40,288 nt of DNA from Candidatus Woesearchaeota archaeon (GTDB taxonomy: Archaea; Nanobdellota; Nanobdellia; Woesearchaeales; GW2011-AR4): contig JACPTD010000007.1 of assembly GCA_016192955.1 (NCBI GenBank), positions 1 through 40,288 on the forward strand. Direction: 5' to 3'. Made by a program: the position numbers and the translations under genes. Of the stretch, positions 10,683 through 33,527 are shown one piece after another (positions within the stretch are counted from its first letter, which is position 1; every line of letters begins with the position of its first letter). The notes beneath the pieces were generated by a model. The model made no database searches and was not told the DNA's origin. It was given only the letters and a program-made list of their open reading frames with translations.

Positions 10683-11681
10683 ATGGATAAGATTAATGTA
10701 GCTGTTATAGGCACGGGCGCAATGGGCAAAAACCATGCAAGGGTTTATTCAGAGATAGGCAATGCCGAATTGGTTGCGGTATGCGATGCCAATAAAGAGC
10801 GGGCAAAGAGCATTTCTGATTTATATAATGCGAATTGCTACACTGACTACAAAGAAATGCTAAAAAAAGAAAAGATAGAAGCTGCTTCCGTATGCGTGCC
10901 AACAGTGCTTCATAAACAAGTTGCAACTGATGTCATAAAAAAGAAGGTTAATGTCCTTGTGGAAAAGCCCATAGCTGCAGCGATAAATGATGCAAGAGAA
11001 ATCATAAATGAAGCTGAGAAGAACAAGGTGAAGCTTATGGTGGGGCATATAGAAAGATTCAATCCGGTTGTCATTGAACTGAAAAAAAGGATAAGAAAAA
11101 ACCAGCTTGGCAAGATTTATAATGTCCATTGCGCAAGGATGGGGCCGACAGCCCAGAGAATAACGGATGTTGGAGTCATAATAGACCTGGCAATACACGA
11201 GATTGATATACTTAAGCACCTAATCAACTCAAAAATCAAGAGAGTCTATGCCGAAACCGCCCAAAGAATACACTCAACTCATGAAGACATGCTGATAGGC
11301 ACAATAAGGTTCGAAAACGGCGTGCTTGGAGTCATAAACTCGAATTGGCTCACTCCGAAGATAGTGAGGGAAATTTCTGTGGCAGGGGAAAATGGAATGT
11401 TCGTGGCAGATTATTTCAAGCAGGAATTATATTTTTACGAGAATGAATTTGCCAGGAGAAAGCTGATGCATAAATTTTACTCAATGATGGTTCTGGAAGG
11501 CAAAAAAAGAAGGATAAAAATAAAAAACAGTGAGCCTCTCAAAAATGAGCTTGTTGCATTTGTTGGCTGCTGCATGAGCAACGGCAATGTACCTATAACA
11601 GGAAATGATGGTTTGGATGCGCTCTATGTTGCGCAAAAGTTCATTGAATCGTCAAAAAAAAATGAAGTGATGGTGCTATGA
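10683..11681 (+). CDS. Gfo/Idh/MocA-family NAD-dependent sugar oxidoreductase (WbpB-like).
   Basis: INVAVIGTGAMGKNHARVY, VLVEKP and GHIERFNP. The ATG lies 1 nt after the DegT stop. Confidence 0.8.
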   Translation: MDKINVAVIGTGAMGKNHARVYSEIGNAELVAVCDANKERAKSISDLYNANCYTDYKEMLKKEKIEAASVCVPTVLHKQVATDVIKKKVNVLVEKPIAAAINDAREIINEAEKNKVKLMVGHIERFNPVVIELKKRIRKNQLGKIYNVHCARMGPTAQRITDVGVIIDLAIHEIDILKHLINSKIKRVYAETAQRIHSTHEDMLIGTIRFENGVLGVINSNWLTPKIVREISVAGENGMFVADYFKQELYFYENEFARRKLMHKFYSMMVLEGKKRRIKIKNSEPLKNELVAFVGCCMSNGNVPITGNDGLDALYVAQKFIESSKKNEVMVL

Positions 11682-12874
11682 GGATAAGCGTTGTCGGCCT
11701 TGGAAAGGCAGGGCTTCCGCTGGCAGCTGTGATAGCTGACAAAGGATTTGATGTATTGGGTGTGGACTTGGACAAAAATAAAGTTGAAAAGATAAACAAA
11801 GGAATCAATCCGCTGGAAGAGGAGCCCGGATTAAAGAGGCTGATAAGCAGCAATGCAGGCAGCCATTTGAAAGCCACAAGCGATCCAATCAAGGCTGCAA
11901 AGTCCTGCAATGTCCATATTATAGTTGTCCCTCTTTTTATAGGCAAAAACAAAAAGCCGGATTTTTCCATGCTAAAAAATGCTCTTGAGAGCCTGGCAAA
12001 ATGCCTTAAGAGAAATGATATTGTGATTTTGGAAACCACTGTTCCTGTTGGAACAACCGAAAATTTTGTTAAAAAAATACTGGAGAAGGGCTCTGGATTA
12101 AAGGCTGGGCGCGATTTTTATCTTGCTTATAGCCCGGAAAGGATAATGACTGGGTATTCTATAAGCAGGTACGTGGACTTTCCAAAGCTGATTGGCGGAA
12201 TTGATGAAAAAAGCACAGAAAAAGCCTATAAGGTATATAGCTCATTCATAAGCACGCCTGTAAAAGTAAGCAATGCAAGAACAGCAGAGCTTGCAAAAAT
12301 AGCTGAAGGAGTGTACAGGGATGTTAATATTGCCCTGGCAAACGAGCTGTTTATGGCTTCTGAGCACTATAACGTTGATTTTTGGGAGATGAGGGACGCT
12401 GCAAAGCATGAGTTTTGCAATATTCTGGAGCCCGGTAATGTTGGAGGGCATTGTATACCCATTTATCCATGGTTCTTGATTAATGAGCTTGATGCGCCAT
12501 TGGCTAAAGCTGCAAGGGAATTAAATGACGGCATGATTCATTATTACATGAAAAAAATTGAAAGGCTCAATGGAAAAAAAGGAAAAAAAGTCGGCATCAT
12601 TGGATTAAGCTACAGGGAAGGCGTAAAGGAAAAGGCTTACAGCAGGTCTGCAGCTTTAATTGATTTGCTGAAGAAAAAAGGCTATGATGTTTATGGAATA
12701 GACCCTTTGTACTCAAAAGAAGAAATAAAAAAAGAATTTGGAATAAATCATTTAGAGAATTTCAATAAGATGGATGTAATAATTTTGATGAATGAGGAGT
12801 TTGGGTATAAAGATAAATTAAAAAGGATTAAAAATAAAGTTATTGATGTAAAAAACGTTCTAATTAAACAATAA
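11678..12874 (+). CDS. Nucleotide-sugar 6-dehydrogenase (WbpA/WecC-like). Second paralogue in the window.
   Basis: ISVVGLGKAGLPLA, GGHCIPIYPWF and GLSYREGVKE. The start overlaps the upstream stop by 4 nt. Confidence 0.8.
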   Translation: MRISVVGLGKAGLPLAAVIADKGFDVLGVDLDKNKVEKINKGINPLEEEPGLKRLISSNAGSHLKATSDPIKAAKSCNVHIIVVPLFIGKNKKPDFSMLKNALESLAKCLKRNDIVILETTVPVGTTENFVKKILEKGSGLKAGRDFYLAYSPERIMTGYSISRYVDFPKLIGGIDEKSTEKAYKVYSSFISTPVKVSNARTAELAKIAEGVYRDVNIALANELFMASEHYNVDFWEMRDAAKHEFCNILEPGNVGGHCIPIYPWFLINELDAPLAKAARELNDGMIHYYMKKIERLNGKKGKKVGIIGLSYREGVKEKAYSRSAALIDLLKKKGYDVYGIDPLYSKEEIKKEFGINHLENFNKMDVIILMNEEFGYKDKLKRIKNKVIDVKNVLIKQ

Positions 12875-12886
12875 GTTATTTATAAA

Positions 12887-13561
12887 ATGGAATGCAATTT
12901 CACATATAGGCACTACAAAGAAACAATTAGCTTGGGTAAAAAGCTCGGATTTTCTTTTTATTGCATGCATGATTTTTTAAAGGAAAAACCTAAAAATAAG
13001 TTTATAGTTATGAGGCATGACGTTGACCTGTCATTGAAACATGCGCTTGCCATGGCTAAAGCAGAACATTCTTTGGGAATTAGGTCAACTTATTTTATAA
13101 GGACCAAAGGGCCTTTCAACCCGTTTGAAAGGAAGAATATTGGGATTGTAAGGCAAATATCAAAGCTTGGGCATGAGATAGGCATCCATTACGAGCTTGG
13201 CAGTGCGCCAATGAACAGCTTCAAAAAGATTTTTTTAAACAACAAAAAAAAGCTTGAAAGGCTGCTGGGGAAAAAAATTTTCGGGGCAGCGCTCCACAAG
13301 ACGAAAAATCTCCATGATAAGAAGCTTAAAAAACTGAATATCGCTGAAGGTTTATTAAATGAGTTTGGTCTGGAATATGACGCCTACTCCGATATATTTA
13401 TTAAAAAAATGAGGTATATATCCGACAGCGCTTATAGGTGGAGGGAAGGGTGCATGTGCAGCCACATCAAAAAAGAGAGCAGGCTGTGCATTTTGACCCA
13501 TCCAATCTGGTGGTCGAACAAAACATCATCGCTTGTAAGCATTATAGAGGAGCTTCTTTAA
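12887..13561 (+). CDS. Polysaccharide deacetylase-like protein (divergent CE4-type). Tentative.
   Basis: FIVMRHDVDLSL...GIRSTYFI and GHEIGIHY resemble the CE4 Asp/His metal motifs. Confidence 0.45.
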   Translation: MECNFTYRHYKETISLGKKLGFSFYCMHDFLKEKPKNKFIVMRHDVDLSLKHALAMAKAEHSLGIRSTYFIRTKGPFNPFERKNIGIVRQISKLGHEIGIHYELGSAPMNSFKKIFLNNKKKLERLLGKKIFGAALHKTKNLHDKKLKKLNIAEGLLNEFGLEYDAYSDIFIKKMRYISDSAYRWREGCMCSHIKKESRLCILTHPIWWSNKTSSLVSIIEELL

Positions 13562-22294: not shown

Positions 22295-22460
22295 AGATTT
22301 TGCAAATTTAGTTTATGCATTAGTTAATAAAACTTACTCAATCTCATGTATTGAATAACATTTATTTTCAATATGGTAATTAAGTATTCCAAACTGTGTA
22401 CCAATAACCGATTAAGTTTAAACATATATTCTTTAGAATATAAATATTTAAGAATAAGTT

Positions 22461-22495
22461 AATTAAATGTAATTATATATAATTGAATGTAATTA
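22461..22495. promoter_or_regulatory. 15-nt direct repeat spaced 20 bp, immediately upstream of the RHH gene. Candidate autoregulatory operator.
   Basis: AATTAAATGTAATTA (22461-22475) and AATTGAATGTAATTA (22481-22495) match at 14/15 positions. An AAAGGTGG Shine-Dalgarno-like motif and the ATG at 22512 follow. Confidence 0.4.
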
Positions 22496-22511
22496 AACAA
22501 AGGTGGTCTAA

Positions 22512-22748
22512 ATGAGTAACAAGGAAATTACAACGGTTTCTATACCAACGCAATTGGCTGAGAAGCTGAAGAAGAGGATAGAAGGCACTGGATTTACATC
22601 ACTATCCGGTTATGTGGTGTATATTCTGAGGCAAGTCATCTCCAGCGTTGAGATGGACGAGCGTAAAAAGAATGAGAAAGAGGCTTTTAGCGAGGAAGAC
22701 GAGAAAAGAGTTAAGGAAAGGCTGCGCAGCCTTGGTTATCTGGATTAA
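22512..22748 (+). CDS. Ribbon-helix-helix (CopG/Arc-like) DNA-binding protein.
   Basis: Beta-strand TTVSIP, helix QLAEKLKKRIE and helix SLSGYVVYILRQVI, followed by an acidic tail. It has its own GGTGG ribosome-binding site. Confidence 0.65.
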   Translation: MSNKEITTVSIPTQLAEKLKKRIEGTGFTSLSGYVVYILRQVISSVEMDERKKNEKEAFSEEDEKRVKERLRSLGYLD

Positions 22749-22749
22749 T

Positions 22750-24129
22750 ATGAAAAAGGTTTTTCTTTTTGGCATAGATGGGGCACCGCCTGAGCTGGTT
22801 TTCGGAAAGTGGCTTGAGCACCTCCCAAACATCAGAAAACTTATGGAATCAGGCGCTTATGCCAGGCTTAATAGCACAATACCTCCTTCAACGATAGTTG
22901 CGTGGAATTCAATGATATCGGGCAAAGACACAAGCGAGATAGGTGTTTTCAGCTATACTTATGTTGATGATGAAGGCAGATCTCGGCTTGTCAACTCGCA
23001 CAATATTAAATGCAGGCTAATATGGGATATCCTAAAAGAGCATGGCAAAGAGAGCATTGCGCTTTATGTTCCATTATCTTATCCTGCCAAGCCAATAAAA
23101 GGATTAATGGTTACGGATTTTTTGACTCCAGACGTTGATTCAAACTGCACATACCCTGAGAGTTTAAAAGAGAAAATAAAAACCATGAAAAATACTGATA
23201 TATTTTTTGATGTCGCAGTAGGTTTGGCAGGGCACAAGGGGCTTGAGATTGATGTTCTTATAGAAAAAACATATGAAATGACAGAAATGCAGATTGAGCT
23301 TTTAAAAGACGTTTTAGCCAATGAAAAATGGGACTTCCTCATGGCTGTGATGATAGGCACTGACAGGCTGCAGCACATGCTCTGGAATCATTTTGATGAA
23401 ACCCATAGGAGGTTTGTCAATAATTCTCAACACAAAAACGCACTAAGAGACTACTATGTTTATCTCGACAAAAAACTTGGCGAACTGCTTGAATTGCTTG
23501 ACAAAGACACTACTGTTATAGTTGCTTCTGACCATGGCATGATAAAGCAGGAAGGCAAGATAAACATAAATAATTGGCTTATTAAAGAAGGCTACTTATT
23601 TTTGAAAGAGGGTATTGATTTGTCAGAAAAAAAGCGTTTCAGCAGAGAGCTTATTGACGTGGAAAAGACAGTTGCTTACGGCGGCGGGGCATATAATGCA
23701 CGTGTATACCTAAATAAGAAAAAACTTGGCAAGGATTATAAAAAAATAAGAGAAGAAATGATAAAAAAACTTAGGAATATCCCTGATGACAAAGGCAACA
23801 ATCTTGATACAAGTGTCTACAAGGCAGAAGAAATTTACAAAGACAGTTCAAATCCAGAATGCCCTGACCTAACCGTTTATTTTGATGACTTGAGGTGGGC
23901 ATCAAACCCTGACTTGGGACAGCATGGAATCTATTCATGGTATACTGCGGTCGGCGCTGACAGTGCAGGCCATTCGAGGCAAGGCTGCTTTGTCATAAGC
24001 GGAAAAGGCATCAAAAGCAAAGGCAAAATTGGGGACATTGACATAAGACAGGTTCTGCCAACCATACTAAAATTGCTTGAAGTCAAATGCCCTTCTGACA
24101 TAGATGTAAATCCTGTTGAGGTGTTCTAA
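22750..24129 (+). CDS. Alkaline-phosphatase-superfamily type I phosphodiesterase/nucleotide pyrophosphatase (NPP-like).
   Basis: VFLFGIDGAPPELV, IPPSTIVAWNSMISG (Thr nucleophile position) and VASDHGM. ATG 22750 lies 1 nt after the RHH stop. The ORF-track extension back to 22648 is rejected. Confidence 0.7.
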   Translation: MKKVFLFGIDGAPPELVFGKWLEHLPNIRKLMESGAYARLNSTIPPSTIVAWNSMISGKDTSEIGVFSYTYVDDEGRSRLVNSHNIKCRLIWDILKEHGKESIALYVPLSYPAKPIKGLMVTDFLTPDVDSNCTYPESLKEKIKTMKNTDIFFDVAVGLAGHKGLEIDVLIEKTYEMTEMQIELLKDVLANEKWDFLMAVMIGTDRLQHMLWNHFDETHRRFVNNSQHKNALRDYYVYLDKKLGELLELLDKDTTVIVASDHGMIKQEGKININNWLIKEGYLFLKEGIDLSEKKRFSRELIDVEKTVAYGGGAYNARVYLNKKKLGKDYKKIREEMIKKLRNIPDDKGNNLDTSVYKAEEIYKDSSNPECPDLTVYFDDLRWASNPDLGQHGIYSWYTAVGADSAGHSRQGCFVISGKGIKSKGKIGDIDIRQVLPTILKLLEVKCPSDIDVNPVEVF

Positions 24130-24130
24130 A

Positions 24131-25228
24131 ATGGCGCATTTTTACGAATCAACATTAATTGATACTGTTGACGGTTTTCAATGCAAGTCATATTCAAACG
24201 AGCATCCTGAAGGGCTCATAATCGTCAAGCCAAAATACATCCCAAAAGAATCTATAGAAGGAGAGGGCCTAAAATACAGGTTTTTATTTGAGAAATGCCT
24301 TGTCAGGTTCAACCTTTTTGCAAGAAAAGAGAAGGTTGCAGATTATGTCAAGCAGTTCAGGAAGAGATTTCCCGACTATATTTATGATTGCCCTACAACA
24401 AAAAACTGGTTTTTTGTAGTGCCGCGCAACAGGATAAAGACAGCGCACGATTGCAGGAACGGGCTGAAAGAGCTGATGAAAGTTCCTGAAAGAGACATGG
24501 ACAGTTACCTGAAGCTAGTAAGGGATCTTGTTGATTTTTTAGCCAAAAGCGGAGTCTCTTACAATAATCTTGGAATTACTCACTCCACTTTGCTTGGCAA
24601 CTATACCCCTGGAAAATCAGATATTGACATAGTGATTTACGGAAAAGAAAACGGCTGGAAAATTCTCAACTATCTTAAGGACGCAAAGCATGAAAAGCTC
24701 CATTGGAAAACTGATGAAGAGTGGGCAGAATACTATAAGGAGCATAAGACATCAGAGTCAATGCACTTTACTGAAAAAGAATATATAAGCCATATGGCGC
24801 GTAAAAGGTATGAAGGTATGTTTGACAAAACCGTATTCACTCTGTTTACAGTTGAAGAGCCGCAAGAAACCTGGCTCAAGTGGGGCGATGAAAGCTATGT
24901 GCCAATTGGGCTGGCAACAGTGCAGGGAAGAGTTGTAGACCACTACAACAGCCATGTGCGGCCCGGTTTTTATGGAATTGAAGGTGCAACACTATTGAAT
25001 AGCAGCCATCCAATGCCAAAGATTGACAAAAGCATTGCAATAAAAAAAATTGTGTTTTACTCCATTCCATTCACTCAGCAGGCAATAAGCGGCGAAAAGG
25101 TAAAAGCATGCGGGCTGCTTGAACTTGCAATTCCTAAAAAAGGCGACAAGTATTACCGGCTTGTCATAGGGTACTTTGATGCTTATATAAGCGAGAGAAG
25201 GGAAAAGGAGTTTATCAAGGTTGTTTAA
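24131..25228 (+). CDS. Pol-beta-superfamily nucleotidyltransferase with an uncharacterised N-terminal domain and a beta-rich (OB-like) C-terminal domain. Copy 1.
   Basis: LGITHSTLLGNYTPGKSDIDIVIYG matches the minimal NTase pattern G-S-x(n)-D-x-D (D-I-D codons at 24620-24628). The C-terminus reads VQGRVVDHYNSHVRPGFYGIEG...KIVFYS...ACGLLE. Confidence 0.6.
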   Translation: MAHFYESTLIDTVDGFQCKSYSNEHPEGLIIVKPKYIPKESIEGEGLKYRFLFEKCLVRFNLFARKEKVADYVKQFRKRFPDYIYDCPTTKNWFFVVPRNRIKTAHDCRNGLKELMKVPERDMDSYLKLVRDLVDFLAKSGVSYNNLGITHSTLLGNYTPGKSDIDIVIYGKENGWKILNYLKDAKHEKLHWKTDEEWAEYYKEHKTSESMHFTEKEYISHMARKRYEGMFDKTVFTLFTVEEPQETWLKWGDESYVPIGLATVQGRVVDHYNSHVRPGFYGIEGATLLNSSHPMPKIDKSIAIKKIVFYSIPFTQQAISGEKVKACGLLELAIPKKGDKYYRLVIGYFDAYISERREKEFIKVV

Positions 25229-26308
25229 ATGCACTTCTACGAATCATCCATAATAACAACAGTAGACGGCTTGCATTGCCAGGTCTATGGCAATGAGCAC
25301 CCTATTGACGGCATCCTTGTAAAGCCAAAATACATACCAACGGAAAAGCTGCACAGCGATGCGCTGCCTTACCGCTTTATAGCTGGCAGAAAAATGAACC
25401 GCTTAAATTTATGGGCTGATAAAAAAAAATTAAAAAAGTATATCGAAGAATTTAAAGCCCAATACCCAGAATACACTTATAAGAGCACCATGCATGAAGA
25501 TAATACGCTGTTTTTTTCTGTTCCGATAAACAGGATTGAGAGGATTTACTTCCCTAAAAAGGGCCTATCCGAACTTATGAGCATGCCAGCAAAATCTTTA
25601 GATGAACATCTTAAGGCAGTCTACGAGTTTGTTAATCTTTTATTAGAAAGCGGGATAAAATTAAATGAGCTTGGGGTGACATATTCCACTTTAGTGGGGC
25701 ATTACTTCTTAAATATATCCGACATCAACATAGTAGTCTACGGAAAAGATAATTTCTGGAAACTGATGGATTATCTAAAAAAATTGTCACATCCGTTGCT
25801 GAGGTGGAAGAATGAAGAAGACTGGATGAGATTTTATAAGGGAAGAAACAGGTTTGCTATCTTCACTAAAGAGCAATTTCTCAGGAATATGGACAGAAAG
25901 AAGTCTGAAGGCTATTTTAATAATAGCTTATTCATTATATTTGGAGTAGAAAATGGAAATGAATCGTGGTTTAAATGGAACGAGGAAAAATACAAAAAAC
26001 TTGGCTTGGTCACAGTTCAAGGAAAAGTCGCTGATAATTTTAATTCTGTGGTTAGACCCGGGTTTTATGAGATAAAAGATTCAAAAATCATTAATGGCTA
26101 CGATGAGGTTCCTGTTAAAAAAATTGTTTTTTACTCAAGAGATTATTGCATGCTATCCTATCCCGGAGAGCACATTGAAGCATGCGGATTGCTTGAGTTG
26201 GCAACAACAAAAGAAGGCAAGCAATATCACAGGGTTGTTGTTGGCTATTTTGATGCATATATCGGCGACAGGAGGGAAAAAGAATTTATCAGGGTGCTAA
26301 ATGACTGA
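25229..26308 (+). CDS. Paralogue of the preceding nucleotidyltransferase, with the D-x-D motif changed to D-x-N. Copy 2.
   Basis: Collinear similarity over the full length (MHFYESSIITTVDGLHCQVYGNEHP..., VQGKVADNFNSVVRPGFYEI...). The motif is LGVTYSTLVGHYFLNISDINIVVYG (D-I-N codons at 25721-25729). Confidence 0.6.
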   Translation: MHFYESSIITTVDGLHCQVYGNEHPIDGILVKPKYIPTEKLHSDALPYRFIAGRKMNRLNLWADKKKLKKYIEEFKAQYPEYTYKSTMHEDNTLFFSVPINRIERIYFPKKGLSELMSMPAKSLDEHLKAVYEFVNLLLESGIKLNELGVTYSTLVGHYFLNISDINIVVYGKDNFWKLMDYLKKLSHPLLRWKNEEDWMRFYKGRNRFAIFTKEQFLRNMDRKKSEGYFNNSLFIIFGVENGNESWFKWNEEKYKKLGLVTVQGKVADNFNSVVRPGFYEIKDSKIINGYDEVPVKKIVFYSRDYCMLSYPGEHIEACGLLELATTKEGKQYHRVVVGYFDAYIGDRREKEFIRVLND

Positions 26309-26960
26309 CGAATTTGATAAACTAGTCAATGATGATGCGTCATTGCGCGAAAATTGTGATTTTTGCAAAGAATCCAAGTTAGAGGTAGGCAAAAAAACAA
26401 GATACGGCTCAGTTGTGATATGCAGAATAGGGAAAGCTAAAAACGGATGGTTTGCTACTTTGTCTCCAAAGACAGGCGGCGACCCAAGAAAAGATTTTAC
26501 CGTACAATTGATGCCTTTTGCGCATTTGACTCATTTTTCCCAGATATCGTCTAATAGGGAATTAGCAAAGAATTACGGAACCCTCTTTTCAAAAATATCC
26601 AGATCTATATCGAAAGTCATGCTGGAAGACAAAAATCTTAAGGCGCTAGCTAACTCAAAAGAGCTCGGCATATCAATAGCAACGTATGGAAAATGTACAA
26701 CATGGAAAGAAAAAAAAGAGCATCTTCATGTCAAGATATTTCCATTTAGAGGCAATATAGGCCAACCCTATACACTAGACAGCTCTTTTGAAAGAAAAAA
26801 AATACGAAAAGATCCAAAAACAGGCGAAGAATTCGTAAAAATGATGCCTGTTAGAAAAGTTATGATAGATGATGAAAGATTTGATTTTCTATCGAAGTTA
26901 TTTATATTTTTATTAGATAACTCCTCAACTTTGTCTGATCATTATAACCACATAAAATGA
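26301..26960 (+). CDS. HIT-superfamily-like nucleotide hydrolase/transferase with an atypical H-x-H-x-K motif.
   Basis: N-terminal CDFC, FTVQLMPFAHLTHF, and EHLHVKIFPF where HIT proteins carry HxHxHxx. The gene overlaps both neighbours (by 8 nt and 4 nt). Confidence 0.5.
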   Translation: MTDEFDKLVNDDASLRENCDFCKESKLEVGKKTRYGSVVICRIGKAKNGWFATLSPKTGGDPRKDFTVQLMPFAHLTHFSQISSNRELAKNYGTLFSKISRSISKVMLEDKNLKALANSKELGISIATYGKCTTWKEKKEHLHVKIFPFRGNIGQPYTLDSSFERKKIRKDPKTGEEFVKMMPVRKVMIDDERFDFLSKLFIFLLDNSSTLSDHYNHIK

Positions 26961-27832
26961 GCTACATAGACCTTCAATCCCACACAAACGCTTCAGACGG
27001 CGAATTAAACCCAAAAGAGACAGTCGACCTTGCTATAAAAAGAGGATTAAATGCCCTTGCTATAACTGACCATGATACTGTTGACGCCCTGGGACAAGCC
27101 ATAAGCTATGCAAAAAACAAAAGCATAGAGATAGTTCCTGGAATCGAAATTGAATGCAGCGAGCCAAGGCATGGATTCAAGAAAGTCCATATGCTCGGAC
27201 TTCTTATAGATTACAACAACAGCTCTCTTTTGAATCTAACAAAAAAAAGTAAAGAAGGCAGGATTAGGCAGAAAAGGAAGATAATAAAAAGGCTGAACTC
27301 CCTGGGGTTTGACATAACTTTTAACGAAGTCAGCAGCACGGTAAAGGGCTCTTTCGGAAGGCCCCATGTCGCGAAAATACTGCTGAAGAAATATCCAGGC
27401 GAGTTTGCATCAATAAGGGATGTATTTGACAGGTATATAGGCGAAGGCAGGCCAGCATATGTTCCAAGAAAAAACATGGTTACGCTGAAAGAGGCAATCA
27501 GCATTGTAAAAAATGCCAATGGCATCCCTATTCTCGCACACCCAGGAGTTTTTAAAAAAGAGGGCTCTCTGCAGCTTATAGACATTTTCTGTGACAGCGG
27601 CGGAGAGGGAATAGAAACTTATTACCCATACCACATAGTGTGCCCGGAACTCAAAATAAACAAAGAAGGAAATGATCTCATGATAAAATTTTACCGTGAG
27701 GCTGCAAAATCAAAAAATTTGCTTGAAAGCGGCGGCAATGATTTTCATGGAAGCTACAGGGACACTATGGGAGAGATAAAAATACCCTACAGCGTCCTGG
27801 AAAAGCTAAGGTTAAGAATTCCTGTGCAATAA
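26957..27832 (+). CDS. PHP-domain metal-dependent phosphoesterase (TrpH/YciV-like).
   Basis: IDLQSHTNASDG, ALAITDHDT, ILAHPG and GGNDFHG. Confidence 0.8.
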   Translation: MSYIDLQSHTNASDGELNPKETVDLAIKRGLNALAITDHDTVDALGQAISYAKNKSIEIVPGIEIECSEPRHGFKKVHMLGLLIDYNNSSLLNLTKKSKEGRIRQKRKIIKRLNSLGFDITFNEVSSTVKGSFGRPHVAKILLKKYPGEFASIRDVFDRYIGEGRPAYVPRKNMVTLKEAISIVKNANGIPILAHPGVFKKEGSLQLIDIFCDSGGEGIETYYPYHIVCPELKINKEGNDLMIKFYREAAKSKNLLESGGNDFHGSYRDTMGEIKIPYSVLEKLRLRIPVQ

Positions 27833-33323: not shown

Positions 33324-33527
33324 ATGGCGGTATCTGATATGAATAAAATTAAATCCAAAATACTATTAACAGGTGCTACTGGATTCATAGGCTCTAATTT
33401 AGTTAAAAAATTGCATAATGGAAATAAAATTGCGATTATTTTGTATATGTTACTAAAGGGATTATATTGGGCTAAAAATCAACAAATTTTAAGTATTTCT
33501 TTTTATGTTAATAATATACTTTCGTAG
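33324..33527 (+). pseudogene. 5' remnant of an NAD-dependent epimerase/dehydratase gene.
   Basis: KILLTGATGFIGSNLVKKL is an SDR Rossmann N-terminus. The similarity is lost after about 40 codons, and the ORF runs into the 3' end of the convergent gene at 33489. Confidence 0.5.

Follow-up and report, generated by a model that had tools for sequence, protein, structure and literature searches.

What does a compact set of genes for nucleotide-phosphate enzymes do inside a glycan locus of a Candidatus Woesearchaeota (DPANN) archaeon? The genes lie on a contig of 40 kb, which is referred to below as the window; the term always means this whole stretch, not the cassette alone. Six plus-strand genes are tightly coupled between positions 22512 and 27832 on the map of open reading frames (ORFs). 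They encode a ribbon-helix-helix (RHH) regulator, an NPP/alkaline-phosphatase-family enzyme (NPP1), two nucleotidyltransferases of the Pol-beta type (NTase-A and NTase-B), a HIT-like protein and a PHP-family phosphoesterase, and a convergent gene for a second NPP-family enzyme (NPP2) is the seventh conserved member. We narrowly favour the reading that this cassette is the DPANN version of the CopG-led sulfate-activation cluster of archaea. It would supply and recycle adenosine 5'-phosphosulfate (APS) and 3'-phosphoadenosine-5'-phosphosulfate (PAPS) for the sulfation of surface glycans, with NTase-A, NTase-B and the HIT-like protein (hereafter the triplet) replacing ATP sulfurylase (Sat). At the pathway level, the assignment to a PAPS cycle that serves glycan sulfation has good support and appears quite probable. 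That the triplet is the replacement ATP sulfurylase is a closer call, for which the comparative-genomic evidence falls slightly short of even. The skeleton of the cluster is already published, and what is new is the proteins in the sulfurylase and pApase slots.

Gene order and conservation of the cassette

The distribution of the cassette was examined by scanning one genome per GTDB species, and 61 loci were obtained, nearly all from metagenome-assembled genomes (MAGs) with DPANN titles. Judged by title, the hosts are Woesearchaeota/Nanoarchaeota, Iainarchaeota and Aenigmatarchaeota, and one contig titled Bathyarchaeota and one titled Bacteroides gave short partial matches. It should be pointed out that many of the cassette-bearing MAGs (L010, L012, L015, L025, L026 and others; L-numbers label the related and control loci that were compared with the window) are titled 'uncultured Methanosarcinales archaeon', which looks like mislabelling by a binning pipeline. 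Single-linkage clustering of ORFs merged the NPP, NTase and HIT-like genes through real gene fusions. The ORFs were instead labelled against the window proteins, and all counts out of 33 given below refer to non-redundant loci with room on both sides.

With the exception of one pair of loci that carry a ProRS-like gene in place of HIT-like, practically all DPANN loci long enough to judge have the NTase-A, NTase-B and HIT-like genes on one strand and in unchanged order. NTase-B always stands directly downstream of NTase-A, and the HIT-like gene is present in 32/33 loci. NPP1 was found in 17/33 loci, NPP2 in 14/33 and RHH in 12/33. Dozens of DPANN genomes repeat this order, which is far more than chance would produce. 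Fusions between neighbouring genes were observed as well. NPP1 is fused to NTase-A in L060 (8522-11077) and L045, both checked directly, and in five more loci according to ORF labelling. The fusion of NTase-B to the HIT-like protein was checked directly in L060 (11084-12823), L055 (11064-12794) and L045 (together with a HAD-like protein, 11061-13499), and ORF labelling gave the same fusion in L035, L049, L053 and L058. Thus, the two kinds of fusion link all four proteins to one process.

These data agree with much of an earlier note on the window. Its six-gene junctions and the translational coupling it drew from them were confirmed at all coordinates on the ORF map. Its domain assignments were upheld as well, with matches to PF01663 and PF02811, a borderline match to PF01909 and weak HIT, OB and NikR matches. 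The framing as nucleotide-phosphate chemistry within a glycan locus was correct, and the comparison across genomes that it had proposed gave a conserved NTase-NTase-HIT order, with PHP next in 25/33 loci and glycan loci on the flanks. Its boundaries have to be amended. The start of the unit had been placed at 22461, which is non-coding and falls within the operator-like repeat upstream of RHH. The extent of six genes is right for the coupled genes, but the conserved unit also takes in the convergent NPP2.

Partners shared with archaeal sulfate-activation clusters

In Pyrococcus yayanosii, PYCH_17520-17560 are arranged in the order copG – ATP sulfurylase – DHH pApase – type I phosphodiesterase/NPP – APS kinase, and copG-led sulfate-activation clusters also occur in Ferroglobus, Aciduliprofundum, Aeropyrum and Ignicoccus (PMC8268124). 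Since this skeleton was already in print, the combination of genes in the window is not an undescribed one, contrary to what the earlier note had supposed. Like the published cluster, the window has a small CopG/RHH regulator in the leading position, an NPP gene and a slot of the type held by phosphatases for 3'-phosphoadenosine-5'-phosphate (PAP), and APS kinase and sulfotransferases are adjacent in many of its relatives. Unlike that cluster, it carries no ATP sulfurylase (PF01747), and NTase-A, NTase-B and the HIT-like protein are found in its place. Moreover, PHP (HD or IMPase in relatives) and not DHH holds the pApase slot, NPP is represented by two genes, the window lacks APS kinase, and the surrounding glycan locus is without PAPS reductase.

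NPP1 and NPP2 match PF01663 in Pfam at 1e-41 and 6e-39, respectively, and are 27% identical to each other. As read by eye, NPP1 retains the metal-ligand motifs GIDG, DHG and GHS together with Ser/Thr at the nucleophile position. NPP1 homologues with 33-37% identity lie within NPP–APS kinase–Sat operons of non-DPANN organisms (L080, L082, L094, L111 and L138; Sat being PF01747 plus PUA_2), within the Sat–NPP–APS kinase operon of L116 and within the RHH–Sat–NPP–APS kinase operon of L092. NPP1, a predicted cytoplasmic enzyme of the NPP/alkaline-phosphatase superfamily, thus corresponds to the type I phosphodiesterase/NPP of the archaeal sulfate-activation cluster. A control set of 80 metagenome loci, fetched with an alignment of DPANN APS kinases, provided further comparisons, and NPP2-like genes were located near APS kinase in the control loci L079, L092 and L107. 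We also noticed that Sat–APS kinase operons of several unrelated metagenomic lineages enclose an uncharacterised gene of the PF01663 NPP family (L080, 4408-7799; L116, 5436-8525; L092, 806-4111).

The RHH protein gave weak matches to the N-terminal part of NikR (E 0.006) and is 63% identical (1e-32) to the 80-aa protein that leads the Sat cluster of L118; the RHH call is based on these two results, and the published cluster has a putative copG transcription factor in the corresponding place. The L118 cluster is ordered RHH–Sat–DHH–APS kinase–sulfotransferase–sugar nucleotidyltransferases. As its Sat is of the Thermoplasmatales type, the comparison is cross-phylum and not within DPANN. Upstream of RHH, the repeat TAATT(A/G)AATGTAATTA occurs in two direct copies (22460-22475 and 22480-22495) that are 20 nt apart, flank a TATA-like TTATATATAA and lie 17-52 nt before the RHH start codon. 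This repeat may be the RHH operator. Related loci showed only loosely similar AT-rich ATTAAT elements, which were judged not convincing as a shared operator.

PHP matches PF02811 in Pfam at 4.5e-13. Its best NCBIfam matches are the 3',5'-nucleoside bisphosphate phosphatase (NF041577, 1.3e-45) and RNase RNM/RNase AM (2.2e-42), a family of the TrpH/YciV, Cv1693 type. The score against NF041577 was 155.7 bits, far under the equivalog cut-off of 400, and the RNase RNM score likewise falls well short of its own cut-off, so the window protein belongs to a distant subfamily. A PHP gene adjoins APS kinase in L139 and in L099, the latter with the order APS kinase–PHP–PAPS reductase–Sat. Within the 33 loci, the slot after the HIT-like gene is filled by one of three unrelated phosphatases, namely by PHP (25/33), by an HD-like protein (6/33) or, in L012 and L055, by an IMPase/CysQ-like protein (PF00459 at 7e-53 and 2e-50, respectively) that is fused to APS kinase in both cases. 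PHP forms such a fusion with APS kinase as well, in L006 (Pfam-confirmed) and in L025 (by sequence). Both kinds of fusion tie the slot to PAPS metabolism. Given that PAP is the canonical substrate of CysQ phosphatases, PAP recycling is the best reading of the slot and a PAPS cycle that of the module, and PHP of the window is presumed to be a PAP phosphatase.

APS kinase (PF01583, 3e-43) was detected within 10 kb in 15/33 loci, usually directly after PHP or just upstream of NTase-A, and sulfotransferases (PF00685 or PF03567) adjoin the cassette in about eight loci. The absence of PAPS reductase, the presence of sulfotransferases and the glycan context together point to sulfation rather than sulfur assimilation.

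Two further genes were seen beside the cassette in subsets of the loci. In many DPANN loci, the gene next after APS kinase encodes a polytopic membrane protein of about 280 aa (L051, 5007-5846, and at the same position in L016, L022, L037, L050 and L061). It has a weak match to CDP-alcohol phosphatidyltransferases (E 0.003), and it could use activated sulfate or act on a lipid acceptor. A 463-aa protein with an N-terminal MarR-like winged helix and a pyruvate-kinase barrel and C-terminal domain is encoded directly upstream of NTase-A in L050 (8608-9999) and also in L052, L054 and L061.

Absence of ATP sulfurylase from the DPANN loci

When 66 DPANN loci and the window (~1.05 Mb) were searched by tblastn with four Pfam-confirmed Sat proteins, no ATP sulfurylase was found. 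The DHH protein from the pApase slot of L118 and PAPS reductase gave no matches in the same sequences. A scan of the 66 DPANN loci for Sat motifs was negative too, though at least 20 APS kinases are present in them. Meanwhile, a regular-expression search of the control loci of at least 8 kb detected both Sat motifs in 11/35; L092, which this search missed, was Pfam-confirmed, and a CysD-type PP-loop was detected in 3. The triplet occurs in 1/35 of these control loci (L075, which is DPANN-like) and on the short L074 contig. No locus among the DPANN and control loci contains the triplet and Sat together. The cassette thus has RHH, NPP, a PAP-phosphatase slot and APS kinase in common with the Sat clusters, and the triplet takes precisely the place that Sat has in them.

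The NTase pair

The NTase-A product is identical to the NCBI protein HYY71_00425 and has 293 close DPANN homologues, and NTase-A and NTase-B are paralogues with 45% identity. NTase-A scored 20.6 bits against PF01909, which is borderline to the cut-off of 21, and NTase-B gave no match. Set beside the superfamily pattern hG[GS] x9-13 Dh[DE]h, NTase-A reads G148...H-S152...S-D164-I-D166, and this metal motif is conserved in 43/43 orthologues. All 43/43 orthologues of NTase-B carry S-D-I-N, with a D-to-N change at the position of D166 of NTase-A. This split between S-D-I-D and S-D-I-N suggests a heterodimer of a catalytic and a modified subunit, in which NTase-A is presumed to be catalytic and NTase-B to be a non-catalytic or modified partner.

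In the AlphaFold2 model of NTase-A (pLDDT 92, pTM 0.90), the N-terminal part is rich in beta structure and the C-terminal part forms a barrel of five strands. A Foldseek search of the PDB with this model returned only OB folds (SSB and RPA among them) for the C-terminal barrel, with weak scores (E 0.04-0.1), and no full-length relative. Apart from the borderline PF01909 match of NTase-A, searches of Pfam, NCBIfam and PDB by phmmer and by profile yielded nothing usable for the two NTases and the HIT-like protein. The view of the earlier note that these three proteins are uncharacterised is borne out, in that none of them belongs to a family of Pfam or NCBIfam or resembles a PDB entry in sequence.

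The HIT-like protein

The HIT-like family has an invariant C19xxC22, H75, H78 and H141-L-H143-x-K145 in an alignment of 28 sequences, the last motif reading H141-L-H143-V-K145 in the window protein. No relative was found at the sequence level in Pfam, NCBIfam or PDB. The AlphaFold2 model (pLDDT 78) gave HIT proteins as its best PDB folds, namely 3ksv, ecHint, NitFhit and DcpS. These fold matches are weak (E 0.03-0.3), with a probability of 0.98 for the top match, 3ksv. They suggest a HIT-like fold.

The CxxC-plus-histidines and HxHx(polar) pattern is one that we take to resemble the transferase (GalT/Ap4A phosphorylase) branch, which includes yeast Apa1/Apa2 and GalT. Like that branch, the protein has the HxHx(polar) motif on a HIT-like fold, and its N-terminal CxxC and conserved histidines are reminiscent of the zinc site of GalT. 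In contrast to that branch, the whole protein is one small domain of about 205 aa with lysine at the third motif position, it has no sequence-level match to any HIT family, and its fold matches are weak, in the E range given above. GalT-branch HIT enzymes proceed through an AMP-histidine intermediate, and yeast Apa1/2 (ADP sulfurylase/ATP adenylyltransferase) interconvert APS, ADP and Ap4A. A literature search on ADP sulfurylase and HIT returned no paper bearing on the HIT-like family.

Several neighbours of the HIT-like gene may be mentioned here. Some NPP-carrying loci encode, in addition, a divergent paralogue of HIT-like that shares 24-27% identity with the window protein, namely L001 (12147-12803, minus strand), L045 (7962-8576), L048 and L063. 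In L061 (12788-13603) and L043, a HAD-like protein of about 270 aa with DLNGT as its first motif is encoded between HIT-like and PHP. L031 (12189-13499) and L033 have a gene for a ProRS-like class II aminoacyl-tRNA synthetase between NTase-B and PHP, and no HIT-like gene was seen there. This gene was considered as a functional replacement of HIT-like, and an inserted housekeeping ProRS was held to be more likely.

A pan-archaeal family of related NTases

A profile search of the full library extended the NTase family to 925 representative clusters (E up to 1e-3). The family is pan-archaeal, with members in Vulcanisaeta, Korarchaeota, Helarchaeota, Thermoprotei and Methanococcus voltae. It shares full-length homology (E 1e-27 to 1e-41) and a three-part architecture with the window NTases, together with frequent tandem duplication and an occasional NikR/RHH neighbour (NikR-type in L069). 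It differs from the window NTases in having the canonical GxxGS...DID motif in the copies that were checked, and its members do not occur together with genes for HIT-like, PHP or APS kinase.

Members of the wider family are located in clusters for the cofactors tetrahydromethanopterin (H4MPT), F420 and methanofuran (L067, 6001-8062; L070, 3955-6074; L072, 3986-6077; L069, 4976-8628). Their neighbours are CitG, ATP-grasp ligases, MfnB, Fae and MCH in L067, CofD, CofC and CofE in L070, and CitG, FTR, MTD and Fwd in L072. The wider family may catalyse an unassigned phosphodiester-forming step in cofactor biosynthesis. As F420 and H4MPT contain phosphodiester-linked hydroxy acids, the position in these clusters suggests small anionic acceptors for the NTase family. 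A literature search covering DPANN/Woesearchaeota sulfation, COG1665, and CitG with nucleotidyltransferase and H4MPT gave nothing on this NTase family.

Proposed mechanism

In Pol-beta NTases, an oxygen nucleophile attacks the alpha-phosphate of an NTP, the NMP is transferred and pyrophosphate (PPi) leaves. If sulfate acted as the nucleophile, the product would be APS. In the proposed reaction, NTase-A (DxD, catalytic), NTase-B (the DxN partner) and HIT-like as a nucleotidyl-histidine transferase would together convert ATP and sulfate to APS. The NTase pair could carry out an adenylylation and HIT-like could pass AMP on to sulfate; the pair could also make APS by itself, with HIT-like in a proofreading role. 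The NTase-B+HIT-like fusions suggest a direct hand-off. APS kinase, which is adjacent in many relatives and not on this contig, would make PAPS and pull the unfavourable equilibrium. Sulfotransferases would consume PAPS and release PAP, PHP would hydrolyse PAP to AMP, and RHH would autoregulate the cassette from the repeat upstream of its gene. The NPP enzymes would be accessory. For the NPP of the archaeal sulfate-activation cluster, removal of PPi has been put forward as a speculation (PMC8268124), and in the DPANN cassette such removal would likewise pull the unfavourable sulfurylase reaction. It is also conceivable that the NPP enzymes act as sulfuryl or phosphoryl transferases.

The proposed net reaction, ATP + sulfate -> APS + PPi, is that of Sat and CysDN, and the genomic position beside APS kinase, PAP phosphatase and NPP is similar as well. 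The proteins themselves are unlike. Sat combines a PUA-like domain with an HxxH nucleotidylyltransferase fold, CysDN combines a PP-loop ATPase with a GTPase, and neither is related to the triplet in sequence or fold; the triplet is predicted to consist of a HIT-like protein and a heterodimer of Pol-beta NTases that bear OB-like domains. In its broadest form, the proposal is that the triplet is a third, independent class of ATP sulfurylase that displaced Sat in DPANN, with pan-archaeal relatives activating small anionic acceptors (F420/H4MPT). We advance this broad form tentatively, as something rather less than an even prospect.

Weighing the alternatives

Several points count against the triplet as a sulfurylase. 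Searches of the 40-kb window by tblastn and relaxed Pfam gave neither an APS kinase nor a recognisable sulfotransferase, and APS kinase within 10 kb was seen in only 15 of the 33 related loci. The triplet proteins have no detectable similarity to any characterised sulfurylase, the HIT assignment consists of weak fold matches and a degenerate motif (HxHxK, where the histidine triad is HxHxHxx), and a requirement for three proteins at the sulfurylase step is without rationale. An OB-like domain and a PHP protein of the RNase AM family would suit a nucleic-acid substrate too. DPANN archaea scavenge many metabolites from hosts, and HIT enzymes typically cleave adenylylated compounds, as hydrolases or phosphorylases. 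The Sat negatives cover loci, not whole genomes, so a canonical sat or cysDN may be encoded elsewhere, and a metagenomic survey reports sulfate adenylyltransferase genes in DPANN MAGs (PMC8091004).

Host scavenging, the usual chemistry of HIT enzymes, the coverage of the Sat search and the survey annotations all speak for a reading in which the module does serve PAPS metabolism and the triplet is accessory to it, for instance in AMP/PAP salvage, in APS/PAPS buffering or proofreading, or in a side reaction of the Ap4A or ADP-sulfurylase type. Activated sulfate would then come from Sat or CysDN encoded elsewhere in the genome, or APS/PAPS would be taken from the host. This reading shares its whole pathway context with the sulfurylase proposal, but we consider it unlikely. 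No other part of the module is invariant, and the triplet occupies the Sat position of homologous RHH/NPP/APS kinase clusters. Sat was found in 0/66 loci despite the many APS kinases they contain, and both motifs are seen in 11/35 of the controls. In addition, three proteins maintained at ~70% identity across Woesearchaeota would be a heavy cost for an accessory function in a reduced genome.

The earlier note had put forward three functions for the cassette, none of which names sulfate activation (APS/PAPS) with PAP recycling. The nearest was decoration of a surface polymer, since the likely output is glycan sulfation, but this would proceed by sulfuryl transfer and not by the nucleotidylylation that was envisaged. 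Taken as a rival scheme, this option has the NTase pair add a phosphodiester-linked group (for instance a nucleotide-derived or phosphoribosyl-type one) to the surface glycan or its lipid carrier, and HIT-like, PHP and NPP trim or proofread the product. The setting within a glycan locus is compatible with this, as are the wider-family NTases beside CitG, CofC and CofD in clusters for cofactors with phosphodiester-linked groups, and the alkaline-phosphatase superfamily includes phospho-group transferases. We nevertheless judge the scheme improbable: it leaves unexplained the adjacency of APS kinase, the PHP and CysQ-like fusions to APS kinase, the interchange of three 3'-phosphatase types and the RHH and NPP genes shared with Sat clusters, and all of the proteins appear cytoplasmic and soluble. 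The remaining suggestions were synthesis and turnover of a nucleotide signal or toxin, as in defence or stress systems, and RNA-end processing or repair. NTases are combined with phosphodiesterases in CBASS-like systems, and the OB-like domain, the RNase AM-type PHP and the HIT fold (aprataxin, DcpS) have RNA-related relatives. However, PADLOC gave no match for 6/7 proteins and an unconvincing one for PHP (E 7e-4), and no effector or sensor gene is present in the conserved neighbourhood. All occurrences of the cassette are in glycan loci, where its position with APS kinase and sulfotransferases is fixed, and its strong conservation and vertical distribution in DPANN are unlike the patchy occurrence of defence islands. 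RNA-end repair would further leave the APS kinase fusions and the sulfotransferases unaccounted for. Both suggestions thus seem very improbable to us, and sulfate activation is the reading that we retain.

Layout of the locus and neighbouring genes

The coordinates of the cassette and of a second gene group in the window are listed in Table 1. The cassette is flanked by a glycan locus with GT1 and GT2 glycosyltransferases, epimerases, dehydratases, a DegT aminotransferase and UDP-sugar dehydrogenases, and further by a PMT_2 protein, a Wzx-type flippase, a GDSL hydrolase, a carbamoyltransferase and a sulfatase-family protein. The latter (33489-35243, minus strand) has 584 aa, of which about 190 form an N-terminal extension. 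Genes like it are present in 9 of the related loci, in keeping with a sulfate- or phospho-group theme of the glycan loci. At 3080-6626, a separate group of genes suggests that the glycan is modified with acyl or glyceryl groups; within this group, no carrier protein was noticed. The phosphopantetheinyl transferase reaction releases PAP too. Scanning the window for tRNA and Rfam families gave no matches.

Table 1. Positions of the cassette and of the acyl/glyceryl-type gene group in the window
Feature	Position	Strand	Remarks
Operator-like direct repeat	22460-22495		two 16-nt copies, 94% identical
RHH-like/CopG-type regulator, 78 aa	22512-22748	+	stop TAA at 22746-48
NPP1, PF01663	22750-24129	+	ATG at 22750, stop at 24127-29
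NTase-A, Pol-beta-type	24131-25228	+	ATG at 24131
NTase-B, paralogue of NTase-A	25229-26308	+	begins directly after the end of NTase-A (25228)
HIT-like protein	26301-26960	+	8-nt overlap with the end of NTase-B
PHP-family phosphoesterase, TrpH/YciV type, PF02811	26957-27832	+	ATGA overlap with HIT-like
NPP2, second NPP/AlkP-family gene, PF01663	27834-29381	-	convergent with the operon, 1-nt gap
Aminoglycoside-3-N-acetyltransferase-like protein	3080-3553		acyl/glyceryl-type group
MaoC dehydratase	3555-3992		acyl/glyceryl-type group
FkbH-like protein	4228-6042		acyl/glyceryl-type group
4'-Phosphopantetheinyl transferase	6174-6626		acyl/glyceryl-type group

Significance

Sulfate activation is the entry to sulfur assimilation, to sulfur dissimilation and to all PAPS-dependent sulfation, and to our knowledge two types of enzyme, Sat and CysDN, are known to carry it out. 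A third, unrelated sulfate-activating enzyme, if the proposal is true, would change the annotation of sulfur metabolism in metagenomes, where these DPANN genomes now appear unable to activate sulfate. The NPP gene that recurs beside Sat and APS kinase in several lineages would gain a testable role. As far as we know, several steps in the biosynthesis of F420, methanopterin and methanofuran are still unassigned, and the cassette would offer a first functional handle on the large pan-archaeal nucleotidyltransferase family found in such clusters. For the organisms themselves, it would mean that archaea which are ultra-small and depend on hosts devote resources to sulfated surface glycans, a point of relevance to cell-cell attachment.

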